Positions 37,101-60,208 are shown, numbered from the stretch's first letter. The stretch: DNA of 64,000 nucleotides from an uncultured Myxococcales bacterium (GCA_964593355.1 CAZQHM010000021.1:1565-65564); one strand, 5' to 3'. A program made the numbers and translations. The notes: generated by a model from the sequence alone, not told the origin.

Positions 37101-40100
37101 GGGGTTACGCCGCAAGATTGGCAGGGTCCGTCACAGGCCGATTCGCAGCAGTATCCATCGACGCAGTAGGTGGAGGCGCACTCGCCATTGGTCAGGCACG
37201 AGTCACCGTTGGCCTTCTTCGGCAGGCACTGGAATCCGCCACAGTAGTAGCCTATGGCGCAGTCGCCGTCGCTGCTGCAAGTGGTGGAGCAGTCGGTGCC
37301 GAGGCTGTTGCACATGTACGGGTCGCAGGAGGCGATACCCCCTTCGACGCAGGTGCCGGTGCCGTCGCACTCATAGGCTTCGAAGAGGGTTGTGCCGACG
37401 CAGAAGGCCGGCAGGCAGACGGTGCCGGGAATCCAGAGTCTGCAACCACCGTTTCCATCGCACTGTCCGTCGAAGCCGCAGGTAGTTTGCGGGTCGCTGG
37501 CGCAATCGAATTTCGGATCGCTTCCCGACGATGTGAAGCCGCAGCTTCCGGCTCCGTTGCAGGCCTGGCAGAATCCGCACTCAGCCTCGGGATCATTGTC
37601 CACGGGATATGGTGAGCAGGTTCCGGGATTGATGGCGCAGCTCTCGCAGGTGCCGTCGCATGCCGATTCGCAGCAGTATCCGTCAACGCAGTAGCCGCTG
37701 ATGCATTCGCTGGCAGCGGTACAGGCAAGGCCATTGGGGCGCCCTGCCTGGCACTCGCCGCTGTTGCACCACGAGTCGGGGGCGCACTGGTCGTCGGAGT
37801 TGCACACGGTGAAGCAGCCGAACGTCGAGTCGCAGAGATAGGGGTGGCAGGGTGAGAAGCCGTTGTCGATGCAGGTTCCCAAGCCGTCGCAGGTGTCGGC
37901 GTTGGTTTGGATTCCGGCGGCGCAAGACTGGTCTACGCACACGGTGCCGGAGATCCAGTATCGGCATTGTCCGGTTCCGTTACAGGTTCCGTCCAGACCG
38001 CAGCTGCTCTGGTCCGTGGCGCCGCATTCGTCGAGGGGGTCTTCGCCTGCGGTAACTGCCTTGCACGCTCCAAGACCGTTGCAAGTGTTGCACAGGGCGC
38101 ACTCGTCATCGGGGTCGCTGTTGTTGGCGAACGGGGTGCACGTGCCTACGCTTCCCGCTGCATCACAAGAGCGGCAGGCTCCGGAGCAGGCGGTGTTGCA
38201 GCATACGCCATCGGCGCAGAAGCCACTCTGGCATACGTCGCCGGTGGAGCAGGGCTGTCCGTTGGCCCGTTTGGGGATGCAGATTCCAAGCAGGCAGGCA
38301 TGGCCTGGGGCGCAGTGGGCACCCACGATGCACAGTACTCTGCAGGCGTCACCGTCGGCGTTGCATGCGTAGGGGGCGCAGGACTGTGCTGCCTCGGTCT
38401 CGCAGAGGCCACCGCCCGAGCAGAACCTCTCGGGGGTCAGCATATGGCCGACGCACACCGGTTCATGGCAGGAGGTAGAGTCGCTCCAGAGGCGGCAAGC
38501 GCCAGTTCCGTTGCATGTACCGTCCTGCTGGCAGCTATCCTGGGAGAAGGAGGCGCAGTCATCAAGCGGGTCATCGCCTGCCGGCACGTCTCCGCAGCCG
38601 TCGACGCCGTTGCACATGGCGCAAACGGGGCAATCGTCTTCGGGGTCGGTGGCGCCGGGGTACTGAGAGCAGGCACCAAGCAGTCCGGGCAGGGCGCAAG
38701 ATTCGCAGTCGCCATCGCAAGCCGAGTCGCAGCAGACCGAGTCGACGCACATATCCGAGAGGCAGTCCGATGTCTCATCACATGCCTCGCCGAGGGGCAG
38801 CTTGGGCAGGCAGACGTCGTCGCAGCGGGCCAGGGCGTCGCACTCCGAGTCAAGCACGCAAGAGATGGGGCACTGGGTCAGCGGTTGATTCTGAGTGCCG
38901 GTGCAGTAGATGTCTTTGTAGTCTCCGCACCCGTCAGAGAGCAAGTCGGGCGTGCAGGCCGAGTCGTCGGCCACTTCGGCGGAACCGCAGGAGAAGCTCT
39001 CACAGACGGCATCCACTCTTGAGCCCTGGCAAGAGCCTGGGGTGTGGCATACAGGGGATTCCCAGTGGTCCCATGGGCAATGTCCAGGGATGTTGCAGCA
39101 GTCGCCCGAGTCACAACAGAAGCTGTTCTGGCAGTGGCCCGAGAGGCAGTCTGTGGGCTCGTCGCACATGGCGCCGTTGGGGTAGTCCGCAACGCAAATC
39201 TCGTCTTCGCAGTGGGCATTAGCGTCGCAATCTGCATGGACGATGCAGCGTTCCAGGCACACGGGTTCACCCTGCTCTTCTGCGCCGTTACAGTACTGGT
39301 CCAGATAGAGGCCGCAGGGCTTCGCCAGGGTCGATTCGTCGCAGGCGCTGTCATCTTCTATGGCGATGCTATGGCAGATGTTGCCCAGACAGGCCGCTTC
39401 GCCCCTCTGTCCCTGGCACAGCTCCGTGAGGTCGCACTGAGGAGGCAGGGTGTAAGCGGCCAGGCAGGCCGACTCATTGTCGCAGCAGTCGCCGGAGTCG
39501 CAGCAGAAGCCGTTCTGGCAGTGGTCAGACTGGCAGTCGGAGTTTTCGTCGCAGGGATAACCGTTTTCGAGGTCCGGGATGCAGATGGTATCGCAGTGGT
39601 TTCCGTTGTCGCAGTGGTCGTCCAGGGTGCAGGTCTCGGGGCAGACAGGCGGTTCCTGGATCTCATCGCCATTGCATCGCACGGGTTTGAAGAACCCGCA
39701 CTCGTCGGCGATGGTGTCAAAGTTGCAGCCTGAGTCATCGGCGTAGGGCACGGAGCTGCACATGTTGTTCCAGCAGAGCGGGCCGGCACGATGTCCCTGG
39801 CAGGTGCCCGGGTTATCGCACACGGGCGGGAGCTGATACCCGGGGCCGCAGTCCGTGGGCACCAGGCAGCACTCGCCCAGATCACAGCAGATGCCGTCGT
39901 TGCAGTTGCCCGAGAGGCAGTCGTCGTCTTCAAGGCAGACTTCACCCGGTCCCAGGTCCTCAACGCAGACGCCATCTTCGCAGTGTGCCAGGGGGTCGCA
40001 CTGGGCGTCGCCGACGCACGAGGTCGGGCATGCGGGGGGAGACTGGTTGGAGGAACCGGTGCAGATGATGTCGGCGAAGGCGTCGCACTGGTCGGCTGTC

Positions 40101-43100
40101 TCGCCGGAGCAGCCCGAGTCGTCGTCCACCTCGATGGTGCCGCACTCGTTGTCCACGCAGGTAGCATCTCTACGGCGTCCCTGGCAGGTCTCGGGGTCGA
40201 AGCATCCCGACGGCGAGCTGAAGGCAGCGGGACAGTCTGACGCCACAGAACAGCAGGAACCGAAGGCACAGCAGTAGCCGTTGGAGCAGTAGTTGGAGAT
40301 GCAGACCAGGTCTGACTCGCACTCAGCGCCGTTGGGCTTCAGCTCAGTGAAAGTTGTGGTCAGCTTGTACCAGCCACCGGAGTTCTTCGCCCCATCGACC
40401 ACGAGGTAGTACGTGCCGGGCACCACCAACTTGTGATTGACCGATTCGTCGCACTCTCCGGCGAGGCACGAGTCGGCGCAGGCAACGGACCACGGTGCGC
40501 AGCCCGATGCGTCGGAGTTCTTCAAGTAGAGGATGCCGTCCCAGTCCGTGGATTCCAGTTGAGCCGAAACGGCCATGGGTTGGGTTGTTGTGAACTTGTA
40601 GATTCTGTCTCCGGCGAAGCCGCCGCCGCAAGAACCTGAGGCGTCGTTGCCAGCGCACCTGGTCTCGCCGAAGTACTCTGCCGTCCCTGCCGTGGAGGGA
40701 ATGTCGAAGGCTGTGGCGCAGGTCTCTCCGCCCTCGAAGGGGGTCTCAGTTCCTACGACGTAGATTCCCCACGAGAGCATGCGTCCGACGCCGAAGTCGC
40801 CGAGGTCGCAGACCCGAAGTGTCCAGACGCCGTTAGCATTCTCGCCTCTGAGCGAGCAGAGTTTACCGTTGTCGTAGAAGGAGGTGCTGAAGGTGTTCCG
40901 GAAGTTGTCGTTATCGCCGCCCTGGCGGTCCCACAGGTAGACCTGGGTGCCGTCGGGGGAGGTCAATCGGGCCCAGGTCTCACCCAGGTAGGCGTGATCG
41001 AACTCCATCTTCACATCGATGGTCGCAATATAGGTCTTGGCCGAGTCGATGGTGATTGTTCGGACGTAGCAGGAGGCCTTGTTCACGTCACCCTGTGACG
41101 GGTTGTGGACGTGGACGCAGTCCGGATGAGTGCAGAGGGGCACGCAGACGCCCTTGCCCGGGCCCCCGGTGCCGCCAACGCAGGCGTCATCGTAGCCACA
41201 GTCATCATCGCCAGCATCGAAGCTATGTGAGCCCCCGCAATTGTTCTCGCAGTGCTGCACCCTGGCGGAGAAGTCGCAGCCTCCCATGCCGTCGTCGAGT
41301 TCCCAGTTGCACTGGTCGATGGTGCATGGGTTGTTGTCGTCGCACTCGGGTACCTCGCCGGCCACGCATCCAACGTTGGCATCGCAGTAGGACGTACCGT
41401 TGCAGAACTGGCCATCTTCGCAGAGCTCATTTCTAGGCTCGTGCACCACGGCCTGAAGTACCTCGTCACAGTAATCCAGGGTGCAGTCCACGCCGTCGGA
41501 GAGGCCCATGGGGGCCGCCGAGATGCAGCCTAGCACCTCATCGCAGCGTTCGAATCCGTTGCAGAAGTAGCCGTCGTCGCAGAAGCCGTCCTGGGCAACG
41601 TGTATGACGCCAAGTTCCGGGTCGCACAGGTCGATGGTGCAGTCCAGAGAGTCGCCCACCACGGGTGGCTCGCCGGGCAGGCAGCCCTGGGTGGCATGGC
41701 AGTATTCTATGCCATCGCAAACGTTATCATTAGAGCAAACTGTATGATTTGGGACATGTTTAATAGTGTCGGTAAGCTCGTCACATAAATCTTGTGTGCA
41801 GGCCACACCGTCATCGGTGGAGGGTGAGGACCCGGCTCTACAGCCCACGACGGTATCGCAGACTTCCAGGCCATTGCACCACTTGCCGTCATTGCAGGCA
41901 GCGTGGTTGGGCACGTGGATCACTGCTCTGAGGGTTTCATCGCAGGAGTCAATGGTGCAGGCCAAGCCGTCGGAGATTGGCACTGCCGAGCCGCCAATGC
42001 AGCCGGCCAGGGCGTCACAGCTCTCTGTGCCGTTGCAGAAGATCCCGTCATCGCACAACAGGTCATTGATGGCGTGGACCACCTTGTCGGTGGTCTCATC
42101 ACAGTAGTCGATGGTACAGGGCACGCCGTCATCGACCAGGGGTGGGGTGCCGGGTGAGCAGGCTCCAGTGACGGGGTCGCACTGCTCTGCGCCGTTGCAG
42201 AAGAGTCCGTCATCGCAGGCCGATACGGTGCCGACGCACTGACCGGCGCCGGAGCAGCGGTCTTCGAAGGTGCAGACATTGGAGTCATCGCAGGCGACAC
42301 CGGCCAAAGCGTTCACCAGTTGGCACGCCCCGGTTGCTGCCTGACAGCGGAAGACCTTGCACTGGGTAGTGGAGGCGGGGCAGACCACGACGGTGTCGGG
42401 GTCCACGACGCATTGGCCGGCGACGCATATGAGGTTGCCGTTGCATAGGTTGCCATCATCGGGGCAGTGGGAGTCTTGTGTGCAGCCGTTGCATGCGGGG
42501 ATGGGGTTGACGCCGGCACCAACGCATACGCCATTGGAGCACGTATCGCCGATGGTACAGAGTTCACCGTCGGAGCATGGGCCCGGCATGGGTTCGTAGA
42601 CGCAGCCCGTTCCCGGGACGCACTTGTCGAGGGTGCAGACGTTGGAGTCGCTGCAGAGGTATCCTTGGGGGGTGTGGACCACGACGTCGTTGAGTTCGTC
42701 GCAGACGTCCGACGTGCAGGAGACGCCATCGGAGAGCAGCGGTGCGGCTCCAGGCTGGCAGTCGGCTGCTGGGTCACAGTACTCGGTGCCATTGCAGAAA
42801 AGGCCATCGTCGCAACCGGAGTCATCGGCGGTGCGGAGAATCTCTCGGGATGCCTCGATGCACACCTCAACGGTACAGTCCACGCCGTCGTCGAGGCCCG
42901 GCATGGGGACGGTGATGCAGCCCACGGAGAGATTACAGGCCTCGGGGCCGTTGCAGTAAACGCCATCGCTGCAGACCGAGTGGTCTGCGAGGTGGCGGAT
43001 GATGTCCAGCGCCTCATCGCAGGTGTCCTCAGTGCAATCCAGGCCGTCGTCGAGGGTTGGGATATTGCCGCTGGTGCAGCCAATGTTGTTATCGCACACC

Positions 43101-46100
43101 TCAAGGCCATTGCAGAAGAGTCCATCGTTGCAGAACTGGTGATCGGGGATATGTTCGACGACGTTGGAGACCTCATTACAGTTGTCTTTGGTGCAGGGGA
43201 TGCCGTCATCGAAGCTGGGGATATCGCCAGGCAGGCAGCCGTAGAAGGAGTCGCAGAACTCTTTGCCGTTGCAGTAGAACCCATCGTCGCAGAGTTCGTC
43301 GTCGGTGACGATGACCACTTGCCTGAGATCTTCGTTGCATAACTGAGTGGTGCAGTCGATTTCGTCATCCTGGACCTGTGGCGTTCCAGCTACGCAGCCA
43401 GCGGCGAAGTGGCACCATTCGAGGCCGTTGCACCAGTTACCGTCGTCGCAGAGGGCGTCCACGGGCTCATGAGAGATGAATCTGGTGGCCTCGTCGCACA
43501 TATCCACGGTGCAGGGGTTACCGTCGTCAAGTCCGGCAAGAGGGGTATTGATGCAGCCGACTCCTTCAGCGCAGGATTCCGAACCGTTGCAGTAGAGGCC
43601 GTCGGAGCAGTTCCGCGGCTTGCCGCCGGAGCAGCTTCCGGCCATACACTGGTCGTCCACGGTACAGAAGAGGCCGTCGTCGCAGTATTGTCCGTTAGGC
43701 ACGGGGGCCATGGCACAGAGGCCCGTGGAGGGGACGCAGGTGTTCTTCATGCACTGGGAGTCGCCTCCTGTGGGGCATGCCACCACTGAGCCGGCTTTGA
43801 TGACGCACTTTCCGCCAACGCACTGGAGGGTTCCGTTGCAGAGGTTGCCGTCATCGTCGCAGCCTGCATCGGAGACGCAGACGCACAAGGGATCCGGTCC
43901 ACCGCCCACGCAGACGCCTGCCACGCACTGGTCGTCCATGGTGCAGACTTCGCCGTCGTCGCAGGGCGCCGTGTTGAAGGCGTGCGTGCACCCTGTAGCG
44001 GTGCAGATGTCGTCGGTGCAGGGGTTGTTATCGCTGCAGACGTCGTTGATGGGCTGGTGCACCACCAAGTCGTGGGTCTCGTCGCACCAGTCGAGGGTGC
44101 ACAGGACGCTGTCCTCGGTCTGCGGGGGAACCCCAGGCATGCATCCCATGAGGGGGTGGCAGGTTTCGGCCCCATTGCAGAAGATGCCATCGTCACAGAA
44201 GGCGTGGTTCGGCGTGTGGGTTATCTGGCCCGTGAGGGGGTCGCACAGGTCCAGGGTGCAGGCCACGAAGTCGTCCAGGGGCAAGGGCTCGCCGGGCAGG
44301 CAACCATCACTGATGCTGCAGAGTTCGTAACCATTGCAGGCGTCTCCGTCCTGGCACTGCAAGGGGTTGGGAACGTGGCTGATGGTGTTGGAGATCTCGT
44401 CGCATATGTCCATAGTGCAGGGGTTGCCGTCGTCCAGCGCCTCCAGGGGTTGACTGACGCAGCCGCTGCCTACTACGCAGGCCTCTACGCCGTTGCAGAA
44501 CTGGCCGTCGTCGCACAGGGCGTTGCGGGGCATGTGGAGCACCGAGTCCATGACTTCGTCGCAGAAGTCCAGGGTGCAGGCGATGCCGTCGTCCAGGGAG
44601 GGAGGCACGCCGTCGGTGCAACCCACCATGATGTCGCACAGCTCTTCTCCGTTGCAGAACTCACCGTCAGTGCAGAACGAATGTATGGGATTGTTAAGAA
44701 CTGTATCGGTGTCTTCATCACATACATCAGCAGTACACGGTATTCCGTCGTCAACCAGGGGTGGTGTTCCCGGGAGACAGCCCAGGGTTGGAGAGCAGCT
44801 CTCGGTGCCGTTGCAGAAGAGGCCGTCGTCGCAGGCTCGTGGGGCCTCGACGCAAGTACCGGCGTTATCGCAGAGGCCGTTTACGGTGCAGAGGTTGCCG
44901 TCGTCGCAGGGGGTTCCAGCGGGTGCAGAAGAGTAGGCGCAGAGCCCCGTTGCGGGGTTGCAGGTGGAGAGGACGCAGCCTCCGTTGGCCTCCGGTGGAC
45001 AGACCACGGCTGTGGCCGGGTTCAGGGTGCACTTCCCGTCGACGCAGAGCCAACTGCCGTTGCAGAGGTTGTTGTCTTCGGGGCAGTCGGCAACGGTTGT
45101 GCATGCGCAGGTTGGAGAGAGGGGGCCCGGCACGCATTGACCGGCAGCGCAGATGTCGCCTACGGTGCAGACGTTGTCGTCGTCGCAGGGAAGCGCATTG
45201 GGGGAGTTAACGCAGCCGACTCCGGCCTGGCACACGTCATCGGTGCAGGGGTTGTCGTCGTCGCAGGCGCCGGGGATTAGCTGGTGGACAATCTGTCCCG
45301 TGGCCTCATCGCAGAAGTCCAGAGTGCAGTCTGCTCCGTCGGAGATAGTGGGCAGCAGTCCGGAGATGCAGCCCTTGTTGACATGACAATACTCCGGGCC
45401 GTTGCAGTAGAGCCCGTCATCACAGAGGGCGTCTTCGGGCATGTGCACGATGACTTTCTGGTCTTCATCGCAGAGTTCGACCGTGCAGTGGATGCCGTCG
45501 TCCAGCGTTGGCGGCGTGCCGGGGAGACAACCTGCTGTGTGGTCGCACATCTCGACGCCGTTGCAGAAGATGCCATCGGTGCAGTCGGCGTCCATGGCCA
45601 CGTGGACGACGTTTCTAATCTCTTCGTCGCAGATATCCAGGGTACAGTCGACGCCGTCATCAGTCTCAACGGGGAGGCCGTCGACGCAGCCCACTTCTGC
45701 CACGCAGCTCTCCTGGCCGTTGCAGTAGAACCAGTCGTTACAGGCTTCGTCCACGGGCGTGTGAACCATCATCTGGTTCGCTTCGTCGCAGTAGTCCGCC
45801 GTGCATGCGATGTAGTCGGTCACAACGGGGGGCAAGCCCTGGATGCAGCCAACGCCGCTGTCGCAAGTCTCTTCTCCGTTGCAGAAGAGACCGTCGTCAC
45901 AGACCAGGTCGGAGCGATAGCAGGCCCGTGCACCGCCCTGCACTTTGCAGATGTCGATGGTGCAAGCGTCGCCGTCCTCGCAGTCGGAGTCCGTCTCACA
46001 CTCGACCACGGTCAGGAAGAGAATCCACTTCAGGATTCGTCCCTGGTCGCCCACGCTTGTGTCTTGTACGTCAAGCTGCCACTTCCCGAAGGAGACAAGG

Positions 46101-49100
46101 CCGTCAAAGAGGCTCAACGAAGCCGGGGAGGCCGACGAATCGAAGTCATAGACCGCAAACAGGTCATCAATTGGGCCGCCGGTTCTGTCGTGGAGCAGCA
46201 CCTCTCTGCTGCCTTTGCTGAATCTCACAAGGAGGTCGCCCTTGGAGGGGTGGTCAATCATCAGCTTGACGTAGACGTCTTTCACTATTACTTGGCTTGT
46301 GATGTCGACGACGGAGGTGAGACCGAAGGACTCGCCGTCGGGGATCACGATGGGGAACTCGTCCGAGGTTAGGAAGGGGAGGCCTGGGACGGGCAGGCAG
46401 GTTCCTGAGACCGAGTCGCAGTAGTCGTACATCCCGCACTCTTTGTGTGAGGTGCAGGTGCCCGGGCAGTGCTCGGGATAGTCGTTGATGCATTCGCCCG
46501 TTACCGTGTCGCAGCTGTCAAGGGTGCAAAGGATGCCATCGTTGCAGTTCTTCTGAGCATATTGGCAACCTGTGACCGGATTGCATGTGTCAGTAGTGCA
46601 GAGGTTGGGCGCTCCATCTTCGTAGTCTGTGCAATCTCTTTCGCTGAACAGACACCAATTATAATAGCAAGTATCGACAGTGCATGCGTTTGCATCATTG
46701 CACTCAGCGTCAATTTCGCAATCCGAGGTTGATACGAATATGGCCCATTGCACCAGGGCACCGCCATCGAATCCGGGTTTGGTGTCTTCCACGGTGAGCA
46801 CCCAGTCGCCGGCCAGGGGCTGCCCGATTATGGAGTCCAGGGAGCCGGGGCCCGATGCAGCCAGGCCGAAGGTCCAGGTGTTCTCGACGTTGGTGGTTGT
46901 GTCGGCGGGAGATGGCTGTTTCAGGACGACGCTCTTGCCGGCGTGTTGGAGTGTAAGCCTGAGGTCGCCACGATAGGCGTGCTGGATCTCGACCTTAACG
47001 TGGAGGCTGAGCACTGTCCCGGGGTCGCTCAAGGTCAGGGTGCTGGTGATTGTGCTGTTTCCAGCGCCGGTGTCCACCAGCTTGGGGGTGTCGGTAGAGG
47101 GGTATCGGTCGCCGGGGATCAGTTTGCAGAACTCGTCGGCAACGACGCAGGCTTGATTGGTGCCGCAAGGTTCATCGTTCTCGCACTCGATGCAACCGGG
47201 AACGGGGGTATGGGTGCACTGCTCATCGACGCAGGCGTCGGTGGTGCAGATTCGGCTGTCGTTGCAGTAGTCATCGCCGGTGCAGATGGGGTAGCCGTTT
47301 GACAGGAAGTTGAGGTAACGGTCGAAGAGGGCGTCTCTGGAGGCGCCGGCTTCGAGGGCCGCCAGCGGGACCGATGCTGCCACGGTGCGGTAGAGCATGG
47401 TGGCGTCTTCATAGGCCACGGCCGTTGCCCAATTCTGAACATCACTGAAGCCCAGGGGAATGGCAGCACCGCGTCTCTTGAGGCCGTCGAGGAAGTTGTT
47501 GGCCATGTAGCTGCTGGAGATGGGCAGATTGAGGCCGTAGGCCAGATGGCGCCCGAATTGGCCGCCTGTGGTGGTCTGAGGACCGTCGGAGATGGGGGTC
47601 AATGAGAAGAAGGGATGAAGCATGGTCTGAGGGTCTTTGAACCAGGTGTCTCCGCCCTCCAAGTAGAGCCTGCCGCCGCCGCCGAGGTATTGGGCCAGCC
47701 GGGCCGCTTCCTGCGACGAGAGTTCATGCTTTCGTCCATAGACGCCCAGCAGCGCAACGACGCCCTCAAACTTACGAAGGTCTGGCACCGCCAGAATGTC
47801 CGTGGCCACCTGCGCTGCTCTTCCAGCGGCGGTGATGGCGTTCAGCACGGCGGTCTCATGGCTTAGGTGGACCTCGGATGGACGCCAGACAAGCCAGCCA
47901 CCATCCATGAAGACGATGCCCTTGACCGTGGCCCTGTCGATGAGGCAGCCGTCGGAGACTCTCACTACAACTTCGAAGGGGCCCGCATCCTGGGGGCCCT
48001 TGGGAGTGACTTTCAGGAGGGCGAAGTAGGCGCCCATGCCGTAAGAATATGCTTGAGAGCCCACGGTGACAAAGCTGGGACCCGACTCGATTGTGATGGT
48101 CAGGTCGTCCATTGAGTCGGCATCCACAGCCAGGAATCGTGGGCTTGGGCGCTCGGTCCAGTGGATGTTGATTTCCTCGGGAATCTCGGTGAACCGTGGA
48201 GGAACGCCGGGACAGACCCTGAAGTTGTCAACTTCAAACGAGGTAATGTTGTATGTTGACGAGGAGTTGACCCCAATACCAAACTTAACGCCTTCGTTCA
48301 GGAAGGCTGCGGGTACTGTGAAATCAAGAAGCTCACTTGTGAAGCCCGCATCGAAGGTGTCAACCCACATAGTAGTGGCCACTGAAAAATCATCCGTATT
48401 TGTAATTACGAGCGAGAGATCAGTTGTGGAATCATAAGGGGTGAAGTGCTGATCCATCTGGACGGTGACGGCAGCGTGGCCGCCCATGGAGAGCCATGGC
48501 GTTGCGAGGTAGCTGTTGACGCCGTCGGTTTCGGGTAGCCAGTGGAACTTCATGAAGCCGTCGGGGCCAAGCGACCCAGCGGTGGCGCAGCGCCAGTTTG
48601 AAGAGGCGGGGTTGCCCAGGTCAACCACGGACCAGCCCAGGGAGGTGGCGCCGGTGCAACTGGCGAAGTTCTGGTGATAGGGGATTGACTGGAAGCATGG
48701 AGAGATGGGCACGAATTTGCAGACACCGGCGATGCACTTCTCTTCGGTGCAGTCGTCGCCATCGCTTCCGCAGTCGGCGTCCACCTGGCAGCAGGTAGCT
48801 GGGAGCCCGGCGCTTGGGGGTGCCTGGTCGGCGGGGATATTACGGCAGATTCCGTAGACGCAGGTGTCCCAGGTGCACGGGTTGTTGTCGTTGCACAGTG
48901 TGGGGGCCGTAGCGGCGGTGCAGCAGTTGGCAATGTCGGTGTTGTAGCAGCGGTAGTCCAGGCAGATGTCGTTGGTGCAGGGCTTGCCGTCGTAGCAGTC
49001 CTGAACCGAGGAGCAGCAGACGGGGTTCAGGGTGTTCAGGTCGAATGTGCATTGGAAGGTTACCGTGTTGCAGCTGCCGATCCAGCACTCATTTCCCGTG

Positions 49101-51271
49101 GCGCAATCGTTGTCGTTCTCGCAGCAGCCCGAGATGGCCACATGACGGCACTGTTTGGCCACGCACATGTCGAGGGTGCAGGGGTCGCCGTCGGAGCAAT
49201 CGCCGTCAGCGGTGCAGCAGTCAGGAATCTCCGTGAAGACGCATGTTCTTGTGTTTGTATTACATTTATCATTTGTGCATTGCTCAGAATCGTTGCAGTC
49301 CGTATCTTTTATGCAGCATCCAGGGATTTTTGTGTGCATACATTTCCCGGTGCTGAGCTCGCACGTGTCTATGGTGCATAAGTTCTGATCATTGCATGAT
49401 GTATTATTGGCATCGCAGAATGTCGGGTCTTCTATGTGTTGACATGTGCATGATACGCATCGGTCGATTGTGTAGGCGTTGGTGTCGTCGCAGTCAAGGT
49501 CTGAGAAGCAGCACTCTTCGTTGAGGAGCACATGGAGGCATGTCTTGTCTTCCAGGCAGACGTCGTAGGTGCAGTCGCAGGTGTCGACGCACTCGGCGTC
49601 GCTGTTGCAGCAGTTGGGTTTCTTGGGGTCTGGGCCATAGCGGCAGGTGTGGTTGACGCAGACGTCAAGGTTGCAGAGGTCGCCGTCATCGCAATCCTTG
49701 TCCTCGTTGCAGCAGTCGGTTTTGGGGAAGAAGCTGCACGTGCCGGTGATCCCAGCCATGACGCAGAGGTTCTGGGTGCAGTAGTCGTCGTCCTGGCAGT
49801 CTTCCGAGGTAGTGCAGCAATTCTGGGTATTGAGGTGTTTGCAGGTGAACTCTTCACAGACATCCACGGTGCAGGGGTTTTCGTCGGGGAGGCATGGGAA
49901 GAGACCCGATTCGTCGCAGTAGTCGGGTCGCAGGAGGTGCTGGCACTGGAAGTTCTGGCACCAGTCCAGGGTGGCGGGGTTACCGTCTTCGCAGTCGGTG
50001 GCGATGAGGCAGCAGACGGGGTTGGATGTGTCGATGCCGTTGACGCACTGGTTGCCGAGGCACTGGTCGATGGTGCAGTCATTGCCGTCGAAGCACTGGG
50101 AGACGTCGTCACAGCAGTTGGGTACGGCGTAGTTGGGGGCGTAGCGGCACTCGTGGACGACGCAGACGTCTGTGGTGCAGAAGAGGCCGTCGTCACAAGC
50201 CGGGTCTCCCTCGCCTTCGCAGCAGAGGGGGTCAGCGCTGGGGACGTAGAAGCAGTAGTTGGTGGAGAGCGAGCACATGTCGGTAGTGCAGTATTTGCCG
50301 TCGTTGCAGTCCTCGTTGCTGATGCAGCATTCAGGCAGCTTGTCGTGGACGCAGAGGCCCTGGACGCAGCTGTCTATGGTGCAGAAGCTGCCATCGTCAC
50401 ACTCACCGTCGGTGGCGCATTGGGTGCACTGGCTGTTGGTGCAGGTCCAGCCCGGGGCGCACTCCCACGAGGAGACGCAGCAGCCGGTGTGGGCGAAGCT
50501 GGCGTACTGGCACTGGAACTGGCCGTTACCGATGAAGACGCAGGCCTGGATGGAGCAGGGGTTGCCGTCGTCGCACGATTCGTCGTCGTAGTTCACGCAG
50601 GACTTCTGCACCCTGAGTTCCAGAGTGGCTCTTGCCGAGGGATTATCCAGGGGCTCCAGTCCGGCGCCTTCGTTACGGTAGAGCACGATGGAGACTCGGT
50701 GTGCGCCAAAAGGAACGTCGTCAAGAGTGACCGTTGTTCCGGCAAAGATCTCCTTCTGGAACACCCCGTCGAGATATACACGAACGCTGTGATTGGGGTC
50801 GGGGAAGATGAAGTTTGTGACCGAGAACGTAACTACGACGGGCGTGACCGGGATGCCCAGGGGGATGTAATCGTAAGGGGTGGGGTCCAGAATCTTGACC
50901 GTGGGGTCCGTAGAGGCCGCAAGCCCGTCGCTGACGGCCAGGAAGTCCCCGAAATCCACCACGAGGTCAGTCCAACTGAAGTCGGCAGCGAGTTGGTCCT
51001 GCTGACGCTCCTCCACGGATGGGGTGCAGGAGGCCGCCATAAGGGCCAAAGAGAGCAGAGCCCCACTCCCCCACGCCGGCAACACGTTCCACCAAGGCCA
51101 GCGCCCTATCGTCCCACGATCTGTGCTGCAAAGCGTCGTTGTTCCGTTGCCGAAATGGTCGGTTCTCATATGAGCCTCCAAGAAGGAGAACAGGGCGTCG
51201 AATACAGCGGGACGCCATGTGGTTCTCTTCGCGTCTGCGAAAAAGGGTCGTCGCTTGCATGAGCGTAGCAC
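25166..51271 (-). CDS. Giant (8,701-aa ORF) Cys-rich modular surface lipoprotein; putative adhesin / extracellular-matrix protein
   Basis: A single uninterrupted 26,106-nt ORF. The likely true start is the ATG at ~51169 (Met35 of the ORF), with GGAGG 5 nt upstream. Signal '...GSGALLSLALMAASC' is followed by the module series itemised below. No peptidase S8, NRPS/PKS, heme CxxCH or toxin motifs are seen. Confidence 0.9.
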   Translation of the reverse strand: MLRSCKRRPFFADAKRTTWRPAVFDALFSFLEAHMRTDHFGNGTTTLCSTDRGTIGRWPWWNVLPAWGSGALLSLALMAASCTPSVEERQQDQLAADFSWTDLVVDFGDFLAVSDGLAASTDPTVKILDPTPYDYIPLGIPVTPVVVTFSVTNFIFPDPNHSVRVYLDGVFQKEIFAGTTVTLDDVPFGAHRVSIVLYRNEGAGLEPLDNPSARATLELRVQKSCVNYDDESCDDGNPCSIQACVFIGNGQFQCQYASFAHTGCCVSSWECAPGWTCTNSQCTQCATDGECDDGSFCTIDSCVQGLCVHDKLPECCISNEDCNDGKYCTTDMCSLSTNYCFYVPSADPLCCEGEGDPACDDGLFCTTDVCVVHECRYAPNYAVPNCCDDVSQCFDGNDCTIDQCLGNQCVNGIDTSNPVCCLIATDCEDGNPATLDWCQNFQCQHLLRPDYCDESGLFPCLPDENPCTVDVCEEFTCKHLNTQNCCTTSEDCQDDDYCTQNLCVMAGITGTCSFFPKTDCCNEDKDCDDGDLCNLDVCVNHTCRYGPDPKKPNCCNSDAECVDTCDCTYDVCLEDKTCLHVLLNEECCFSDLDCDDTNAYTIDRCVSCTCQHIEDPTFCDANNTSCNDQNLCTIDTCELSTGKCMHTKIPGCCIKDTDCNDSEQCTNDKCNTNTRTCVFTEIPDCCTADGDCSDGDPCTLDMCVAKQCRHVAISGCCENDNDCATGNECWIGSCNTVTFQCTFDLNTLNPVCCSSVQDCYDGKPCTNDICLDYRCYNTDIANCCTAATAPTLCNDNNPCTWDTCVYGICRNIPADQAPPSAGLPATCCQVDADCGSDGDDCTEEKCIAGVCKFVPISPCFQSIPYHQNFASCTGATSLGWSVVDLGNPASSNWRCATAGSLGPDGFMKFHWLPETDGVNSYLATPWLSMGGHAAVTVQMDQHFTPYDSTTDLSLVITNTDDFSVATTMWVDTFDAGFTSELLDFTVPAAFLNEGVKFGIGVNSSSTYNITSFEVDNFRVCPGVPPRFTEIPEEINIHWTERPSPRFLAVDADSMDDLTITIESGPSFVTVGSQAYSYGMGAYFALLKVTPKGPQDAGPFEVVVRVSDGCLIDRATVKGIVFMDGGWLVWRPSEVHLSHETAVLNAITAAGRAAQVATDILAVPDLRKFEGVVALLGVYGRKHELSSQEAARLAQYLGGGGRLYLEGGDTWFKDPQTMLHPFFSLTPISDGPQTTTGGQFGRHLAYGLNLPISSSYMANNFLDGLKRRGAAIPLGFSDVQNWATAVAYEDATMLYRTVAASVPLAALEAGASRDALFDRYLNFLSNGYPICTGDDYCNDSRICTTDACVDEQCTHTPVPGCIECENDEPCGTNQACVVADEFCKLIPGDRYPSTDTPKLVDTGAGNSTITSTLTLSDPGTVLSLHVKVEIQHAYRGDLRLTLQHAGKSVVLKQPSPADTTTNVENTWTFGLAASGPGSLDSIIGQPLAGDWVLTVEDTKPGFDGGALVQWAIFVSTSDCEIDAECNDANACTVDTCYYNWCLFSERDCTDYEDGAPNLCTTDTCNPVTGCQYAQKNCNDGILCTLDSCDTVTGECINDYPEHCPGTCTSHKECGMYDYCDSVSGTCLPVPGLPFLTSDEFPIVIPDGESFGLTSVVDITSQVIVKDVYVKLMIDHPSKGDLLVRFSKGSREVLLHDRTGGPIDDLFAVYDFDSSASPASLSLFDGLVSFGKWQLDVQDTSVGDQGRILKWILFLTVVECETDSDCEDGDACTIDICKVQGGARACYRSDLVCDDGLFCNGEETCDSGVGCIQGLPPVVTDYIACTADYCDEANQMMVHTPVDEACNDWFYCNGQESCVAEVGCVDGLPVETDDGVDCTLDICDEEIRNVVHVAMDADCTDGIFCNGVEMCDHTAGCLPGTPPTLDDGIHCTVELCDEDQKVIVHMPEDALCDDGLYCNGPEYCHVNKGCISGLLPTISDGADCTLDFCDEATGQIVHQLIPGACDDDNPCTDDVCQAGVGCVNSPNALPCDDDNVCTVGDICAAGQCVPGPLSPTCACTTVADCPEDNNLCNGSWLCVDGKCTLNPATAVVCPPEANGGCVLSTCNPATGLCAYSSAPAGTPCDDGNLCTVNGLCDNAGTCVEAPRACDDGLFCNGTESCSPTLGCLPGTPPLVDDGIPCTADVCDEDTDTVLNNPIHSFCTDGEFCNGEELCDIMVGCTDGVPPSLDDGIACTLDFCDEVMDSVLHMPRNALCDDGQFCNGVEACVVGSGCVSQPLEALDDGNPCTMDICDEISNTISHVPNPLQCQDGDACNGYELCSISDGCLPGEPLPLDDFVACTLDLCDPLTGQITHTPNHAFCDDGIFCNGAETCHPLMGCMPGVPPQTEDSVLCTLDWCDETHDLVVHQPINDVCSDNNPCTDDICTATGCTHAFNTAPCDDGEVCTMDDQCVAGVCVGGGPDPLCVCVSDAGCDDDGNLCNGTLQCVGGKCVIKAGSVVACPTGGDSQCMKNTCVPSTGLCAMAPVPNGQYCDDGLFCTVDDQCMAGSCSGGKPRNCSDGLYCNGSESCAEGVGCINTPLAGLDDGNPCTVDMCDEATRFISHEPVDALCDDGNWCNGLEWCHFAAGCVAGTPQVQDDEIDCTTQLCNEDLRQVVIVTDDELCDDGFYCNGKEFCDSFYGCLPGDIPSFDDGIPCTKDNCNEVSNVVEHIPDHQFCNDGLFCNGLEVCDNNIGCTSGNIPTLDDGLDCTEDTCDEALDIIRHLADHSVCSDGVYCNGPEACNLSVGCITVPMPGLDDGVDCTVEVCIEASREILRTADDSGCDDGLFCNGTEYCDPAADCQPGAAPLLSDGVSCTSDVCDELNDVVVHTPQGYLCSDSNVCTLDKCVPGTGCVYEPMPGPCSDGELCTIGDTCSNGVCVGAGVNPIPACNGCTQDSHCPDDGNLCNGNLICVAGQCVVDPDTVVVCPASTTQCKVFRCQAATGACQLVNALAGVACDDSNVCTFEDRCSGAGQCVGTVSACDDGLFCNGAEQCDPVTGACSPGTPPLVDDGVPCTIDYCDETTDKVVHAINDLLCDDGIFCNGTESCDALAGCIGGSAVPISDGLACTIDSCDETLRAVIHVPNHAACNDGKWCNGLEVCDTVVGCRAGSSPSTDDGVACTQDLCDELTDTIKHVPNHTVCSNDNVCDGIEYCHATQGCLPGEPPVVGDSLDCTIDLCDPELGVIHVAQDGFCDDGYFCNGFERCDEVLGCISAAPMGLSDGVDCTLDYCDEVLQAVVHEPRNELCEDGQFCNGTSYCDANVGCVAGEVPECDDNNPCTIDQCNWELDDGMGGCDFSARVQHCENNCGGSHSFDAGDDDCGYDDACVGGTGGPGKGVCVPLCTHPDCVHVHNPSQGDVNKASCYVRTITIDSAKTYIATIDVKMEFDHAYLGETWARLTSPDGTQVYLWDRQGGDNDNFRNTFSTSFYDNGKLCSLRGENANGVWTLRVCDLGDFGVGRMLSWGIYVVGTETPFEGGETCATAFDIPSTAGTAEYFGETRCAGNDASGSCGGGFAGDRIYKFTTTQPMAVSAQLESTDWDGILYLKNSDASGCAPWSVACADSCLAGECDESVNHKLVVPGTYYLVVDGAKNSGGWYKLTTTFTELKPNGAECESDLVCISNYCSNGYCCAFGSCCSVASDCPAAFSSPSGCFDPETCQGRRRDATCVDNECGTIEVDDDSGCSGETADQCDAFADIICTGSSNQSPPACPTSCVGDAQCDPLAHCEDGVCVEDLGPGEVCLEDDDCLSGNCNDGICCDLGECCLVPTDCGPGYQLPPVCDNPGTCQGHRAGPLCWNNMCSSVPYADDSGCNFDTIADECGFFKPVRCNGDEIQEPPVCPETCTLDDHCDNGNHCDTICIPDLENGYPCDENSDCQSDHCQNGFCCDSGDCCDNESACLAAYTLPPQCDLTELCQGQRGEAACLGNICHSIAIEDDSACDESTLAKPCGLYLDQYCNGAEEQGEPVCLERCIVHADCDANAHCEDEICVADYPNGAMCDEPTDCLSGHCQNSFCCDSGDCCNIPGHCPWDHWESPVCHTPGSCQGSRVDAVCESFSCGSAEVADDSACTPDLLSDGCGDYKDIYCTGTQNQPLTQCPISCVLDSECDALARCDDVCLPKLPLGEACDETSDCLSDMCVDSVCCDSACDGDCESCALPGLLGACSQYPGATDPEDDCPVCAMCNGVDGCGDVPAGDDPLDDCASFSQDSCQQDGTCNGTGACRLWSDSTSCHEPVCVGHMLTPERFCSGGGLCETEAAQSCAPYACNADGDACRVLCIVGAHCAPGHACLLGICIPKRANGQPCSTGDVCQSGFCADGVCCNTACSGACRSCDAAGSVGTCTPFANNSDPDDECALCNTCNGLGACKAVTAGEDPLDECGATDQSSCGLDGTCNGTGQCRYWISGTVCVDQSCAAGIQTNADTCDGLGTCIDNGFSPCHPYLCDSTFGCFTVCNSDDQCAPDSWCNSGECQAGRPNGLACTAASECISGYCVDGYCCESACDGTCESCAINPGTCSPYPVDNDPEAECGFCQACNGAGSCGFTSSGSDPKFDCASDPQTTCGFDGQCDGNGGCRLWIPGTVCLPAFCVGTTLFEAYECDGTGTCVEGGIASCDPYMCNSLGTDCSTTCSSDGDCAIGYYCGGFQCLPKKANGDSCLTNGECASTYCVDGYCCESACDGPCQSCGVTPGLCTPEAINMDPEDDCPTCWGCDGAGGCQLVPTGVDPADDCEDAGVSTCGLDGTCDGTGACRTYLPGSVCNARTCSGTTLTLDDYCDGSGSCVVSGSVSCEPYVCHPAGDSCLASCNTHADCVSTHFCNALSECQPKLTVGSPCSEAEQCESSYCVEGFCCSSPCDGLCASCGQPGSEGTCILSPAGQDPQNKCGHCMVCNGAGSCTNVAAGLDPKAQCQQDDVATCGQDGTCNGAGSCRLYTAGTVCVPTNCTDSTRTMASVCNGSGTCITGFAVACDPYVCNTVGTLCRTFCTTNAHCTTGNYCNSANKCVAAKPDGSTCMAGAECQSGFCVDGYCCQSACTGPCRSCGLPASKGLCVEFPNGTDPETDCGTCLVCEDGACAPVTAGTDPKSECDIQSASTCGSTGECDGTGGCEVWSLGTICIPQTCSGFTKYHPDQCDGSGSCADSGSTSCSPYSCDAAGVECRTGCTANTHCAPGFSCVGNVCVATKPNGATCSTAGECASGYCVDGYCCVTACSGSCQNCSAVPGQCNFWPAGTDPENNCGHCKACNGAGGCQMIANGLDPKSNCDLDPVTSCNKDGACDGAGNCRLFAVGVTCNNSYCSGTTRYQTDICDGLGTCVDGGTVSCVPYTCNAVGTDCVTSCIDNTQCAGGYYCNLGVCQPLKAPGTPCLLDGECTTGACADGVCCESACLGECRSCGVPGYEGICRFTPNNQDPENDCSLCRVCNGAGACKAATAGTDPMDECPWSAESTCGLNGQCNGLGGCGYWSSTSLCAPQSCVGSTRNNSDICDGSGECVEGGSTSCDPYVCRADGLDCRTTCVDSAHCVTGYFCWGSSCVAKRANGQTCSSAQQCTSGYCVDGYCCDSECAGTCSSCRLTGKLGQCSPYAANSDPESECALCNACDGAGSCAPQSAGSDVKFECSSSMPGTCGQDGTCDGSGTCRYWGPSTICAAGSCTGQIFEAPDLCNGSGTCSDSGTIDCSPYVCNGSGTGCLGACNTDADCAADHYCRSQQCQPKLPNGQTCIEGSECWSGYCVDGFCCNTDCTQTCASCSLNPGTCSALVVNTDPFNECGNCRVCNGNYTCVAVPNGLDPTNDCIPSPESSCGLDGECDGTGGCRLWDTVTQCMSPYCLSGNIYSARMCDGSGVCSAPTVTSCAPYSCDGDGVNCATSCTDNSGCAPSHRCLSNLCVPKLVNGAACLVGVDCLSGQCVDGVCCNTACSGTCQTCNLSGYEGTCTFYGLNNDPADECGTCNTCNGSGSCVAQLEGQDLKSQCEQEDKSTCGPDGVCNGKGDCRLWEGGTECVAAACTGSDFQGKHVCDGSGNCLAPTGNCSLLGWDVNPGSQLVCAQSEPCSGAVTHTEAVAICSALGGRLCSWDEIAFGETVGSGCGYENERVWSLTECSEDSFFTGAGDPANLGSIPVACTPSTGTAMVRCCAYASSCCPYQCGASGCRTYCDVEADCCTGYTCLGNACVAKQSGGTTCSVNSDCATGFCVDGYCCNEACTGSCRSCGLPGFEGTCTAFPAGVDPQAECGLCRICSGFGTCIAASAGSDPKSQCAQADPLSCGLNGSCNGSGACAYWPSETVCATGSCSGTTMTFADECNGSGSCIDGGTQDCCPYRCNGSGSACTTHCANSADCCDGNYCSSGSCLAKKALGETCIEGQQCASGLCVDGYCCDSACDGPCESCSAVPGNCSPAPAGTDPENNCGLCMACSGSGPLCVAADDGTDPKADCLAGTAASCGLDGECNGAGACRYYSVGTQCAPRICSAGTLYLQDLCTAPGVCTDGGVTSCSPYECNAAGDDCLTVCGSDDDCLPGFFCNGSGICEAPRTLGSPCVAGFECQSSFCADGVCCATACDGLCQSCNASGSEGTCSLTPNNSDPGNECGHCRVCNGAGSCKAATAGTDPKNQCTAMAPATCLFDGTCDGAGACANFNATTVCLAESCVGSTYYPADICNGSGSCTDSGSASCAPYSCGASSCLTSCSEHSHCSAGNFCSGSSCVPKLTNGATCSEAQQCVSGNCIDGYCCNSACAGSCRACNMPGSAGTCTNIGSGLDPAGECGACATCNGMGSCVNAAEGQDPKNDCAPEHPSTCGLDGVCNGKGACRQWPAGTLCSSYACTGDTISEPRYCDGNGTCIAETLGCETSAWQRTPGYLWVCSESDPCSGLVTFEQALSFCASQNARLCSWGELSANEAAGSGCGYDDKRVWALSECGEDSHYTLAGSTAFSGAVPLQCTANTGLAYARCCAFADSCCPYKCGGSGCLTMCASASDCCDGYRCEAGKCLRIAALGETCSSSAECESGYCVDGVCCDSACAGTCLSCAVAGALGTCSAIPAASDPGNECGLCRACDGAGACQAVAAGTDPLNDCVQQGPATCGFSGECDGAGACSLFSAGTVCVSEVCVGDLLYNADMCNGTGSCIDSGTQTCQPYRCNTEGLACLTACSLDSDCATGNYCAGTVCLPKEPLGTPCGAANQCQTGYCVDGVCCDSGCTGTCRTCALAGQLGTCSFVPNTSDPDGECGTCQVCNGTGTCTFAAEGSDPKNQCGAQLPSTCGRDGQCNGKGACRLWAGGTSCSSPSCAGSTFSSSKYCDGDGTCVGALSSCETLGWDAGAGSDATCSEADPCGVAISFSEAKALCESRNARLCTWAEVNNREAQGAGCGIDAQRVWTLSECGEDSYYTGPANPDNLGSVPLQCTARASVAQVVCCSTNSSCCPYTCADIGGACRTTCSAHSNCCSGNYCQSGSCVPKKADGLTCSGAGECASGFCVDGFCCNSSCTGGCRGCAEPGSEGTCTSFASGTDPYNECGLCQACNGIGYCTVAPDGTDPGNDCAVEAPESCGTTGECVAGACEFWAADVLCGPQRCVADTLFDPQRCSGAGTCVDAGSVSCCPYLCSGDACGTACTGHEQCCSSAYCQSGACLNDKPTGTTCSADEECATGYCVDGYCCATACDGSCESCALPGLLGTCSKHAPDSDPDNECGICMLCNAAHACAPALAGTDPESECEPDGCLNDGLCDGSGACRLPTAGTECTTASCSGSTLYVPDECDGGGTCVDMGTVECSPYVCMGGACATNCSDDAHCAGGFWCNTPNCVAKKSLGATCGGSNECLSGFCVDGVCCNNSCEGNCKACDVAGKEGTCDFVPNNEDSYGDCPLCSVCDGAGACKFATDGQDPKEQCAAQAPCGTDGSCDGAGACRFWSTTTQCAPASCPAGGSTYYPADFCSGSGSCSDAGTSSCCPYMCGTNACRTSCTVATQATDCCPTAWCNGSVCVNKRAGGETCTSAGQCLSGNCVDGVCCSTACNGTCEVCNVSGDGTCTPIGAGFDPENECGSCATCSGSSTCQNFVAGTVCVTQTCSGTTLHPSDLCDGAGNCVDSGTATCSPYVCSGASCAVSCLDDTGCAAGHYCSSNACVPKKPTGSTCTGANQCLSDFCVDGYCCNTACTGNCQQCNLVGAEGTCSFSVINTDPDNNCGTCGMCDGSGLCMLVPANQDYMDECATSDPGTCGTNGSCSGSGYSCALWAHGTLCTSQACLGSTVRPPNICNGLGACIAQAEYSCCPYVCDGALCRTSCGSDSNCCSENICMAAGTACQGCETTSPCPPGATPCCGGACTNPIQLEVGTDRGVTRSYAGSTFGAPASTHSFLSGGNTYGLTEPERVFRFNVNSDEGALVHATLTYQTIQWYPSLVVRQDGCGGAVVGSSIHCGDADGCTVSFFAEKNRNYFVIVDGTSGTKGDFNLSMTYYRMCGDCQCSGPAYGEVVDGLVWMQPASQISTESAGSNPVDCRSPRDFAGNASVLDPHQNCESGTMCHLAVMGTWSGTGTNLGGARDDWRTSSGYTTVECNKPVGSATYADGVDHFYSFQLLHESYVWIRLEKSGAWSSGRGPRLHLISGTAMDQVGTDKYVCTDGDGLVADYGAYPDSWTPGSDTYQKMRLVPGWYFIIVDQNFGSYSTVHPSEATANYILDIYLFQNP
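25169..26200 (-). other. Giant gene: two C-terminal PPC-like beta-sandwich domains
   Basis: 'RVFRFNVNSDEGALVHATLTYQTIQWYPSLVV...NRNYFVIVDGTSGTKGDFNLSMTY' and 'GVDHFYSFQLLHESYVWIRLEKSG...GWYFIIVDQNFGS...YILDIYLFQNP'. Confidence 0.5.
28990..29330 (-). other. Giant gene: embedded C-type-lectin/FGE-like module 3
   Basis: 'LGWDAGAGSDATCSEADPCGVAISFSEAKALCESRNARLCTWAEVNNREAQGAGCGIDAQRVWTLSECGEDSYY'. Confidence 0.45.
30330..30680 (-). other. Giant gene: embedded C-type-lectin/FGE-like module 2
   Basis: 'SAWQRTPGYLWVCSESDPCSGLVTFEQALSFCASQNARLCSWGELSANEAAGSGCGYDDKRVWALSECGEDSHY'. Confidence 0.45.
32750..33100 (-). other. Giant gene: embedded C-type-lectin/FGE-like module 1
   Basis: 'LLGWDVNPGSQLVCAQSEPCSGAVTHTEAVAICSALGGRLCSWDEIAFGETVGSGCGYENERVWSLTECSEDSFF'. 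The 'A..C...G.RLCxWxE' core resembles the CTLD / FGE 'RLPTEAEWE' region. Confidence 0.45.
38770..40330 (-). repeat. Giant gene: 4 x ~130-aa repeats with 'CxxGxCCDxGxCC' signature
   Basis: 'CISNYCSNGYCCAFGSCCSV', 'CLSGNCNDGICCDLGECCLV', 'CQSDHCQNGFCCDSGDCCDN', 'CLSGHCQNSFCCDSGDCCNI', each followed by 'C.G.R....C....C....DDS.C'. Confidence 0.65.
40340..40740 (-). other. Giant gene: PPC (pre-peptidase C-terminal)-like beta-sandwich domain
   Basis: 'DRIYKFTTTQPMAVSAQLESTDWDGILYLKNSDASG...GTYYLVVDGAKNSGGWYKLTTTF' follows the PPC pattern (DxYxFxxxxxxxxxxL...DLxLxLxxxxG...GxYYxxVxG). Confidence 0.55.
40760..41080 (-). other. Giant gene: P-domain 3
   Basis: 'IDVKMEFDHAYLGETWARLTSPDGTQVYLWDRQGG...ANGVWTLRVCDLGDFGVGRMLSWGIYV'. 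Confidence 0.6.
41290..45960 (-). repeat. Giant gene: about 22 x ~45-aa 'DDGxxCTxDxCDE...CDDGxFCNGxExC' repeats in 3-4 super-repeats separated by ~190-aa interludes
   Basis: Examples: 'CDDGLFCNGEETC', 'CTDGIFCNGVEMC', 'CDDGQFCNGVEAC', 'CDDGFYCNGKEFC'. The interlude 'CDDDNPCTDDVC...CPEDNNLCNGSWLCVDGKCTL...CDDGNLCTVNGLC' recurs three times. This is reminiscent of, but not identical to, the Myxococcus cysteine-rich repeat. Confidence 0.7.
46010..46300 (-). other. Giant gene: P-domain 2
   Basis: 'VKLMIDHPSKGDLLVRFSKGSREVLLHDRTGG...GKWQLDVQDTSVGDQGRILKWILFL'. Confidence 0.6.
46720..47040 (-). other. Giant gene: P-domain 1 (proprotein convertase P-domain-like)
   Basis: 'VKVEIQHAYRGDLRLTLQHAGKSVVLKQP...GDWVLTVEDTKPGFDGGALVQWAIFV' matches the P-domain core pattern (xHxxxGDLxIxLxSPxGTxxxL ... 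W.L.V.D....G.L..W.L). Confidence 0.6.
48690..50620 (-). repeat. Giant gene: about 18 N-terminal ~35-aa repeats 'CCxxxxDCxDGxxCTxDxCxxxxC'
   Basis: Examples: 'CCISNEDCNDGKYCTTDMCSLSTNYC', 'CCNEDKDCDDGDLCNLDVCVNHTC', 'CCTADGDCSDGDPCTLDMCVAKQC'. This is the same repeat class as in genes 1..1455 and 4486..7017. Confidence 0.7.
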
Positions 51272-60049: not shown

Positions 60050-60208
60050 GATTACCTCCAAACCAGAGCCCCGTGGGGCCACAATGTGGCGGATTCTGCC
60101 TCATTGGGTTGGCCAAATCAAGGCTGGGGGAGGGGGTTCGCCGTAATCACTTGAATTCCGCGGGGGACTCTGAAAATATCATGTAATCTTGTGGCCTTGG
60201 AGGTCTTC

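Follow-up and report, generated by a model that had tools for sequence, protein, structure and literature searches.

In a 64,000-nt stretch of DNA from an uncultured Myxococcales bacterium (GCA_964593355.1 CAZQHM010000021.1:1565-65564; the whole stretch is hereafter called the window), a giant open reading frame (ORF) encodes three proprotein-convertase-type P-domains within a Cys-repeat scaffold. We found that the three segments are authentic P-domain β-jelly-rolls and that the giant protein is without a subtilase or other recognisable catalytic domain. The P-domains probably act as non-catalytic modules of a very large surface or matrix protein that is predicted to be rich in disulfides and lipid-anchored at its N-terminus. 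The ORF runs uninterrupted on the minus strand from 25166 to 51271 (all nucleotide positions are those of the window, and all features of the giant gene are on the minus strand) and encodes 8,701 aa counted from the first GTG, with 1,113 Cys residues (12.8%). The public gene call (ENA ERZ27257504, contig k141_80660, 65.9 kb) begins at M35 (window position 51169) and gives a protein of 8,667 aa.

For domain assignment, the P-domain islands were scanned singly with Pfam, and the whole ORF was scanned as ten overlapping pieces. All three islands scored above the gathering score of P_proprotein (PF01483; 21 bits): P-domain 1 (P1; aa 1383-1517, 46721..47125; HAYRGDLRLTLQHAG ... GDWVLTVEDT) with 50.8 bits (E 1.8e-13), P-domain 2 (P2; aa 1626-1757, 46001..46396; HPSKGDLLVRFSKGS ... 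GKWQLDVQDT) with 32.6 bits (E 8.5e-08), and P-domain 3 (P3; aa 3389-3509, 40745..41107; HAYLGETWARLTSPDG ... GVWTLRVCDL) with 55.7 bits (E 5.3e-15). A hidden Markov model (HMM) built from the three copies detected exactly three domains in the ORF (aa 1383-1517, 1626/1627-1757, and 3389/3397-3509) and no cryptic fourth. The copies share 27-29% mutual identity, and their alignment showed that the hallmark columns H…G(D/E)…G-W-L-V-D…G…W are common to all of them. The motifs H-x(3)-GDL-x-[IV]-x-L and G-x-W-x-L-x-[IV]-x-D...G-x-L-x-x-W were present, with H, G, W, L, V, D, G, and W invariant; P1 retains RGDL, and P3 has GE where the others have GD. All three are Cys-free islands, and they are embedded among Cys repeats, as the original prediction, made from the sequence alone, had described for the scaffold. 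The peptides quoted in that prediction start at aa 1435, 1678, and 3430 (46937-46969, 46208-46240, and 40949-40984). The interval that it assigned to the domains, 40760-47040, falls short by ~28 residues at the start of P1 and by ~5 at the end of P3.

Structural prediction and profile comparison pointed to the same fold. The AlphaFold2 (AF2) model of P3, computed from a 3-sequence alignment, was all-β with a predicted local distance difference test (pLDDT) score of 71, and furin and Kex2 made up nearly all of its top 20 Foldseek matches in the PDB (probability 1.00; TMq 0.5-0.65, and 0.55-0.65 for the best). The expected P-domain-like jelly roll was recovered for P3. The three-copy profile also matched the kexin-like Aeromonas sobria protease (3hjr) in its P-domain, residues 452-557 (E 3e-6). 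Single-sequence phmmer searches against the PDB were marginal, with furin at E 0.64 for P1 and the carbohydrate-binding module (CBM) of a xylanase at E 0.47 for P3.

No subtilisin catalytic domain was found in the ORF, in agreement with the original prediction. Pfam gave no match to Peptidase_S8 or Inhibitor_I9, either at E<=0.01 in the ten overlapping pieces of the full ORF or when the Cys-poor islands were scanned at E<=10. An S8 HMM of our own, built from S8-bearing profile matches and recovering 9/10 Pfam-positive controls, detected no S8 in the giant protein or in its relatives P0014 and P0019. The absence of catalytic motifs had been claimed as well; this holds for GTS[MA]A, but not for D-T-G and H-G-T, since DTG is found twice (aa 1400 and 8127) and HGT once (aa 8252), all of them isolated chance tripeptides outside an S8 context. 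Nor do the P-domains directly follow a catalytic domain, as they do in kexin/furin-type convertases (MEROPS S8B): N-terminal to P1 lie a GATase1/GIFT-like domain and a 53-aa Cys linker, and N-terminal to P2 and P3 there are Cys repeats.

The only block long enough for an S8 domain is aa 896-1329, directly upstream of P1. It had no Pfam, NCBIfam, or PDB sequence match, and phmmer against the PDB likewise returned nothing for it. Homologues split the block into domains A (aa 896-1023, 48203..48586), B (aa 1024-1110, 47942..48202), and C (aa 1111-1329, 47285..47941). Domains A and B are kept across the family; A is Cys-free and has no fold assignment, and B has an Ig/cadherin-like look by eye only. 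An S8 domain within A or B was rejected because each is too short (128 and 87 aa). Conservation within the family is highest in domain C, a Cys-free α/β domain (32-42% identity), which has the invariants W, LGV(Y/H)G, Y-x-E-G-G-D-x-W, and YRT..SS. Its AF2 model (7-sequence alignment; pLDDT 78; predicted template modelling score, pTM, 0.82) showed a flavodoxin-like α/β fold. The best PDB matches in Foldseek were the IFT52 N-terminal (GIFT) domain (5fms; E 8e-6), followed by the glutamine amidotransferase (GATase) folds of PabA and GMP synthase (E ~1e-4), and the structural matches overall spanned E 8e-6 to 1e-3 with TM 0.5-0.6. The segment aa 1110-1329 contains no Cys, and a 10-sequence family alignment contains no invariant His, which excludes a GATase or Cys-peptidase triad (Cys-His-Glu). 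A degenerate subtilase or other peptidase in domain C was ruled out by the GATase1/GIFT-like fold together with these missing residues.

Domain C thus resembles GIFT and class I glutamine amidotransferase domains (IFT52 5fms, PabA, GMP synthase) in fold, whereas it differs from them in lacking Cys and any sequence-level family match and in carrying its own Y-x-E-G-G-D-x-W motif; its sequence had no Pfam match at E<=10 (aa 880-1390), no NCBIfam match, and no PDB profile match. The signature Y[MLI]EGGD[TFS]W was found at 511 confirmed JGI metagenome loci, mostly in secreted proteins tagged with a type IX secretion system (T9SS) or dockerin signal, and domain C occurs without P-domains in small proteins of this kind. 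P0153 carries domain C at aa 440-625, after a distinct papain domain (aa 92-292). Domain C is a candidate for a new extracellular domain family without a Pfam or NCBIfam model, and this GIFT-like domain with its EGGD motif could become a new domain model.

We searched 1.84 billion cluster representatives exhaustively with the three-copy profile (HMMER; E<=1e-3). The profile matched 16,979 representatives, and every one of the best 150 of these 16,979 holds 2-16 P-domain copies. Pfam scans took in the 59 of the best 150 that are <=1,100 aa long, and detected P_proprotein in 59/59 and Peptidase_S8 in 10/59; our own HMM detected S8 in 18/150. Proteins without S8 therefore amount to 49/59 by Pfam and 132/150 by our HMM (83-88%). 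Other partners in the 59 were Peptidase_M6, Peptidase_C1, TGase_elicitor, PKD, Big_9, TSP_3, SLH, CBMs, and Por_Secre_tail. Published precedents exist: a planctomycete 2,210-aa surface 'anchoring' protein combines a signal peptide, a Lamin Tail Domain (LTD), and a cohesin with multiple P-domains split by TSP3 repeats and has no S8 (PMC6461901), and a survey of fibrillar adhesins included a P-domain-like fold among its candidate functional domains (PMC9210967). The rarity of S8-less P-domains implied by the original prediction is contradicted by these counts and by the planctomycete precedent; most of the closest bacterial relatives have multi-copy P-domains without S8, and such proteins are already published. 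For this reason, the understanding of P-domains is left unchanged.

The giant protein belongs with the known giant mosaic bacterial surface proteins that bear protease-less P-domains. The generic S8-less multi-P-domain proteins of bacteria are likewise extracellular mosaics (PKD, Big_9, SLH, CBMs, TSP3, T9SS tails), whereas they are mostly Cys-poor (15/150 with >=6% Cys), and the A-B-C cassette was found only in the family of the giant. With kexin/furin-type subtilases (furin 1p8j/5jmo, Kex2 1ot5/2id4, Aeromonas sobria protease 3hjr), the giant shares PF01483, the hallmark motifs, and the β-jelly-roll; in contrast to them, it has neither S8 nor an I9 prodomain, and its three copies stand apart among Cys repeats instead of one copy being packed on a catalytic domain. 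The planctosome anchoring protein is likewise a large secreted or surface scaffold in which S8-less P-domains have small repeats between them, and it shares the LTD with two relatives of the giant, P0075 and P0080. The giant differs from it in belonging to another phylum, in having Cys repeats rather than TSP3 repeats, in lacking a cohesin, in its lipobox anchor and GIFT-like domain C, and in being four times larger.

The new element is the family context. The 15 of the best 150 profile matches with >=6% Cys were compared by BLAST with the Cys-poor islands of the giant, and the cassette order A-B-C-P1-P2…P3-post-P3 was found in P0014 (7,059 aa), P0019 (5,094 aa), P0034, P0075, P0080, P0081, P0086, P0109, and P0143. 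Five independent metagenome loci (L083-L087) have the same order as the giant. Exactly three P-domains occur in all 11 members with sufficient sequence (11/11). When each copy is compared with its counterpart in other proteins, identity averages 36% for P1, P2, and P3 alike, compared with 25% across positions and 23-27% within one protein, which indicates that the triplication predates the family and that each copy has been separately conserved. The Cys-rich linker between P1 and P2 (aa 1518-1625 in the giant, 46397..46720) is ~110 aa long in the whole family. The spacer between P2 and P3 is ~1,630 aa in the giant, the longest, versus ~400-820 aa in the relatives; the lineage of the giant has expanded this repeat zone two- to four-fold. 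Pfam found no S8 in P0034, P0075, P0080, P0143, or P0053. In a more distantly related sister clade of giants (L088, L090-L098; 8-9% Cys), the lipobox and A-B-C are retained, and no P-domain occurs within >=2,000 aa downstream; L092 (e.g., aa 922-2100 of the ORF piece) instead has another β-rich domain after domain C, and then long arrays of MopE-type metal-binding-motif repeats. The sister clade shows that the P-domains are modular, exchangeable accessories on a common chassis. In the P-bearing family, this chassis starts with the lipobox, the N-terminal domain, and Cys repeats; the cassette from A to P2 comes next, then a Cys-repeat spacer whose length varies, P3 with a β-domain, a long stalk of Cys repeats, and the C-terminal domains.

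A probable lipoprotein signal peptide occupies aa 35-82 of the giant (...LLSLALMAAS followed by C82; 51026..51169), where the lipobox-type pattern [LVI..][ASTG][AGS]-C is matched at C82, and a hydrophobic segment ending in [AGS]-C stands ahead of the mature protein in the giant and 11 relatives (12/12). These patterns indicate that the giant and its relatives are likely lipoproteins. Taken at the level of sequence, they form a coherent and previously undescribed family of at least 15 giant Cys-rich putative lipoproteins with a conserved cassette, from an uncultured lineage of Myxococcota. Two members, P0075 and P0080, begin with an LTD (PF00932), the same LTD and multi-P combination as in the planctosome protein. 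Related proteins carry the JGI name 'cysteine-rich repeat protein', and P0014, P0019, and P0040 are labelled 'subtilisin-like proprotein convertase family protein' by JGI/IMG, with no S8 detected by our HMM. The latter name looks like a misnomer driven by P-domain matches, and the lesson for annotation is that such matches alone lead pipelines to name proteins in this way.

The original prediction had proposed that a jelly-roll domain has been re-used as a structural or binding module. With no S8 found, a furin/Kex2-like fold for P3, and the Cys-free block resolved into A, B, and the GIFT-like C, non-catalytic reuse is the best reading of these data. The giant is most likely a surface protein of adhesin or matrix type, with the P-domains as its binding or structural nodes. 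According to this model, the protein would be exported and lipid-anchored at Cys82, and the Cys repeats would form a rigid disulfide-bonded stalk. The P-domains along the stalk could then bind protein or glycan ligands, or act as rigid structural nodes, in adhesion or matrix interactions at the cell surface; A, B, the GIFT-like C, P1-P3, and the terminal domains would contribute binding or rigidity, and the P-domains would not be partners of a protease domain. Surface exposure, disulfide bonding, and a binding role are all predicted here from sequence features. The P-domain belongs to the galactose-binding-domain-like superfamily, a membership that is compatible with ligand binding. Among the traits of fibrillar adhesins, the giant has a long repeat stalk and an N-terminal lipobox anchor. 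Many very large genes have been noted in Myxococcota (10.1101/2023.11.21.568195).

Several observations weigh against this model. The P-domain fold was modelled for P3, with moderate confidence (pLDDT 71; 3-sequence alignment). Domains A and B and the N-terminal, post-P3, and C-terminal domains have no assignment, and an enzyme could formally be hidden in one of them. Adhesive domains usually sit at the distal tip, whereas the anchor of the giant is N-terminal and its P-domains lie mid-chain, in the membrane-proximal 40% of the chain; the domains at the anchor-distal end are the C-terminal ones, which have no family match at E<=10. This placement makes a structural or lateral-binding role of the P-domains more plausible than tip adhesion.

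Other explanations of the P-domains were weighed against the same evidence. Since every one of the 15 members of the P-bearing clade has C, P1, and P2 side by side, joined by short Cys linkers that are conserved, the P-domains could be intramolecular folding or stabilising partners of the GIFT/GATase1-like domain C, as the furin/kexin P-domain is for its catalytic domain. We consider this unlikely: domain C is found without P-domains in the sister clade giants (L088, L090-L098) and in T9SS- and dockerin-tagged proteins, P3 is 400-1,630 aa distant from C, and Cys linkers of 53 and ~110 aa between C, P1, and P2 speak against furin-like tight packing. A role in trans, with the P-domains as docking or activation sites that recruit secreted peptidases to a 'planctosome'-like degradative scaffold on the surface, appears improbable. 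To our knowledge, no P-domain binds a protease in trans, and a scan of 20 flanking ORFs of the window gave no match to peptidase, cohesin, or dockerin families. Such recruitment would fit the occurrence of domain C alongside a papain-family peptidase in P0153 and the relatives P0075 and P0080, which likewise start with an LTD, and a docking role has been proposed for the planctomycete anchoring protein with its LTD and multiple P-domains (PMC6461901); the planctosome model is, however, itself hypothetical.

It is far less credible that the P-domains are a functionless relic of an ancestral subtilase and P-domain protein that lost its catalytic domain. P-domains do come after S8 in eukaryotic convertases and some bacterial subtilases, but the three copies hold fixed positions in 11/11 complete members with higher identity at the same position (~36% vs ~25%), which indicates selection on each copy, and no S8 remnant was found in any member tested. 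That the P-domain matches are a chance or compositional artefact of a Cys-rich ORF, or that the ORF is not a real gene, has a negligible probability. Only the unusual composition speaks for an artefact. Against it, the matches lie in Cys-free islands at 12-35 bits over the Pfam cutoff and have fold support. Chance cannot account for an open frame of 26 kb, two assemblies contain the flanking response-regulator gene with the start of the giant ORF, and proteins of the same architecture are found in many metagenomes. Within the preferred reading of the P-domains as non-catalytic modules, a more specific proposal can be made tentatively, and we hold it to be possible but doubtful: A–B–C–P1–P2…P3 might be a conserved, lineage-specific ligand-recognition unit whose three anciently diverged P-domains each have their own specificity, with domain C founding a new extracellular GIFT-like family (at least 511 loci) that perhaps binds glycan or metal.

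The remaining parts of the giant protein are mainly Cys repeats, which total ~6,900 aa over three zones. The Cys-free stretches of >=50 aa are aa 83-224, aa 896-1329 (with single Cys residues at 1020 and 1109), the three P-domains, and the C-terminal aa 8341-8701. The signal peptide is followed by a Cys-free N-terminal domain (aa 83-224, 50600..51025), which is common to the relatives P0019 and P0034 and has no family match. Cys-repeat zone 1 (aa 225-895, 48587..50599) has a ~34-aa period and Dicty_CTDC matches. Zone 2 (aa 1758-3388, 41108..46000), between P2 and P3, is made up of a 53-aa unit (CDDGxFCNGxExC...DDGxxCTxDxCDE; 27% identity at lag 53) repeated ~30 times and also has Dicty_CTDC matches. 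The post-P3 domain (aa 3510-3625, 40397..40744) adjoins P3 in eight relatives and has a PPC-like look by eye only. Zone 3 (aa 3626-8340, 26252..40396) is built from ~27 copies of a ~177-aa super-repeat with weak DUF7107 matches only, and the Cys-poor C-terminal domains (aa 8341-8701, 25169..26251) close the protein, the first of them being common to P0014.

In the Pfam scan of the whole ORF, P_proprotein, Dicty_CTDC, and DUF7107 were the only families to appear; Dicty_CTDC matches were confined to aa 1-3500, and DUF7107 stayed below threshold in aa 3500-8700; NCBIfam gave no match for any ORF piece. Matches of Myxococcota proteins to eukaryote-type Cys-rich repeats have been noted (10.64898/2026.06.07.730663). 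The giant shares Dicty_CTDC matches in aa 1-3500 with the Cys-rich repeat proteins of this phylum, whereas it is larger than these (1,113 Cys) and carries a globular cassette at fixed positions. A PPC-like identity of the post-P3 and C-terminal domains was rejected as unsupported, with no Pfam match at E<=10 and no significant mutual similarity. Tandem Repeats Finder detected no DNA-level repeats in the giant gene, which indicates that the Cys repeats are old and diverged; recent repeat amplification and an assembly artefact were ruled out by the same result.

The genes around the giant ORF encode PheS/PheT, EF-P, AspS, Mur ligases, hybrid histidine kinases, a GGDEF response regulator, and a MarR regulator, a content that points to an ordinary bacterial chromosome. 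A Logan contig from run SRR8476232 also carries the flanking response-regulator gene together with the start of the giant ORF. Among GTDB species representatives, PheS identity was at best 60-66%, to Myxococcota, Bradymonadia, and 'Myxococcales' metagenome-assembled genomes, which suggests an uncultured Myxococcota lineage without a close reference. A search of the contigs of GTDB representatives with aa 896-1517 as the query returned no relative, and the lineage therefore appears to be missing from these representatives. A word-indexed homologue search gave no match for the three P-domains and two partial matches only for aa 896-1517.

On one side of the giant gene (19801-24941), the plus strand encodes a 1,407-aa PAS/HisKA/REC/Hpt hybrid kinase that is translationally coupled with a REC-GGDEF regulator; on the other side (52897-55383), it encodes the MarR regulator, EF-P, and a second hybrid kinase. 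Also near the giant gene, a 365-aa ORF (60191-61288, plus strand) is Cys-rich and of secreted type and contains Cu-binding_MopE 'putative metal-binding motif' repeats (E 1.6e-21). Two further plus-strand ORFs of 475 aa (28-1455) and 843 aa (4486-7017) had no Pfam match at E<=1e-3. The G+C content of the giant gene is 62-65% (26001-40000) compared with 52-61% in the flanks; this difference may be an effect of codon or amino-acid composition (Cys, Gly, Asp, Ala) rather than of foreign origin.

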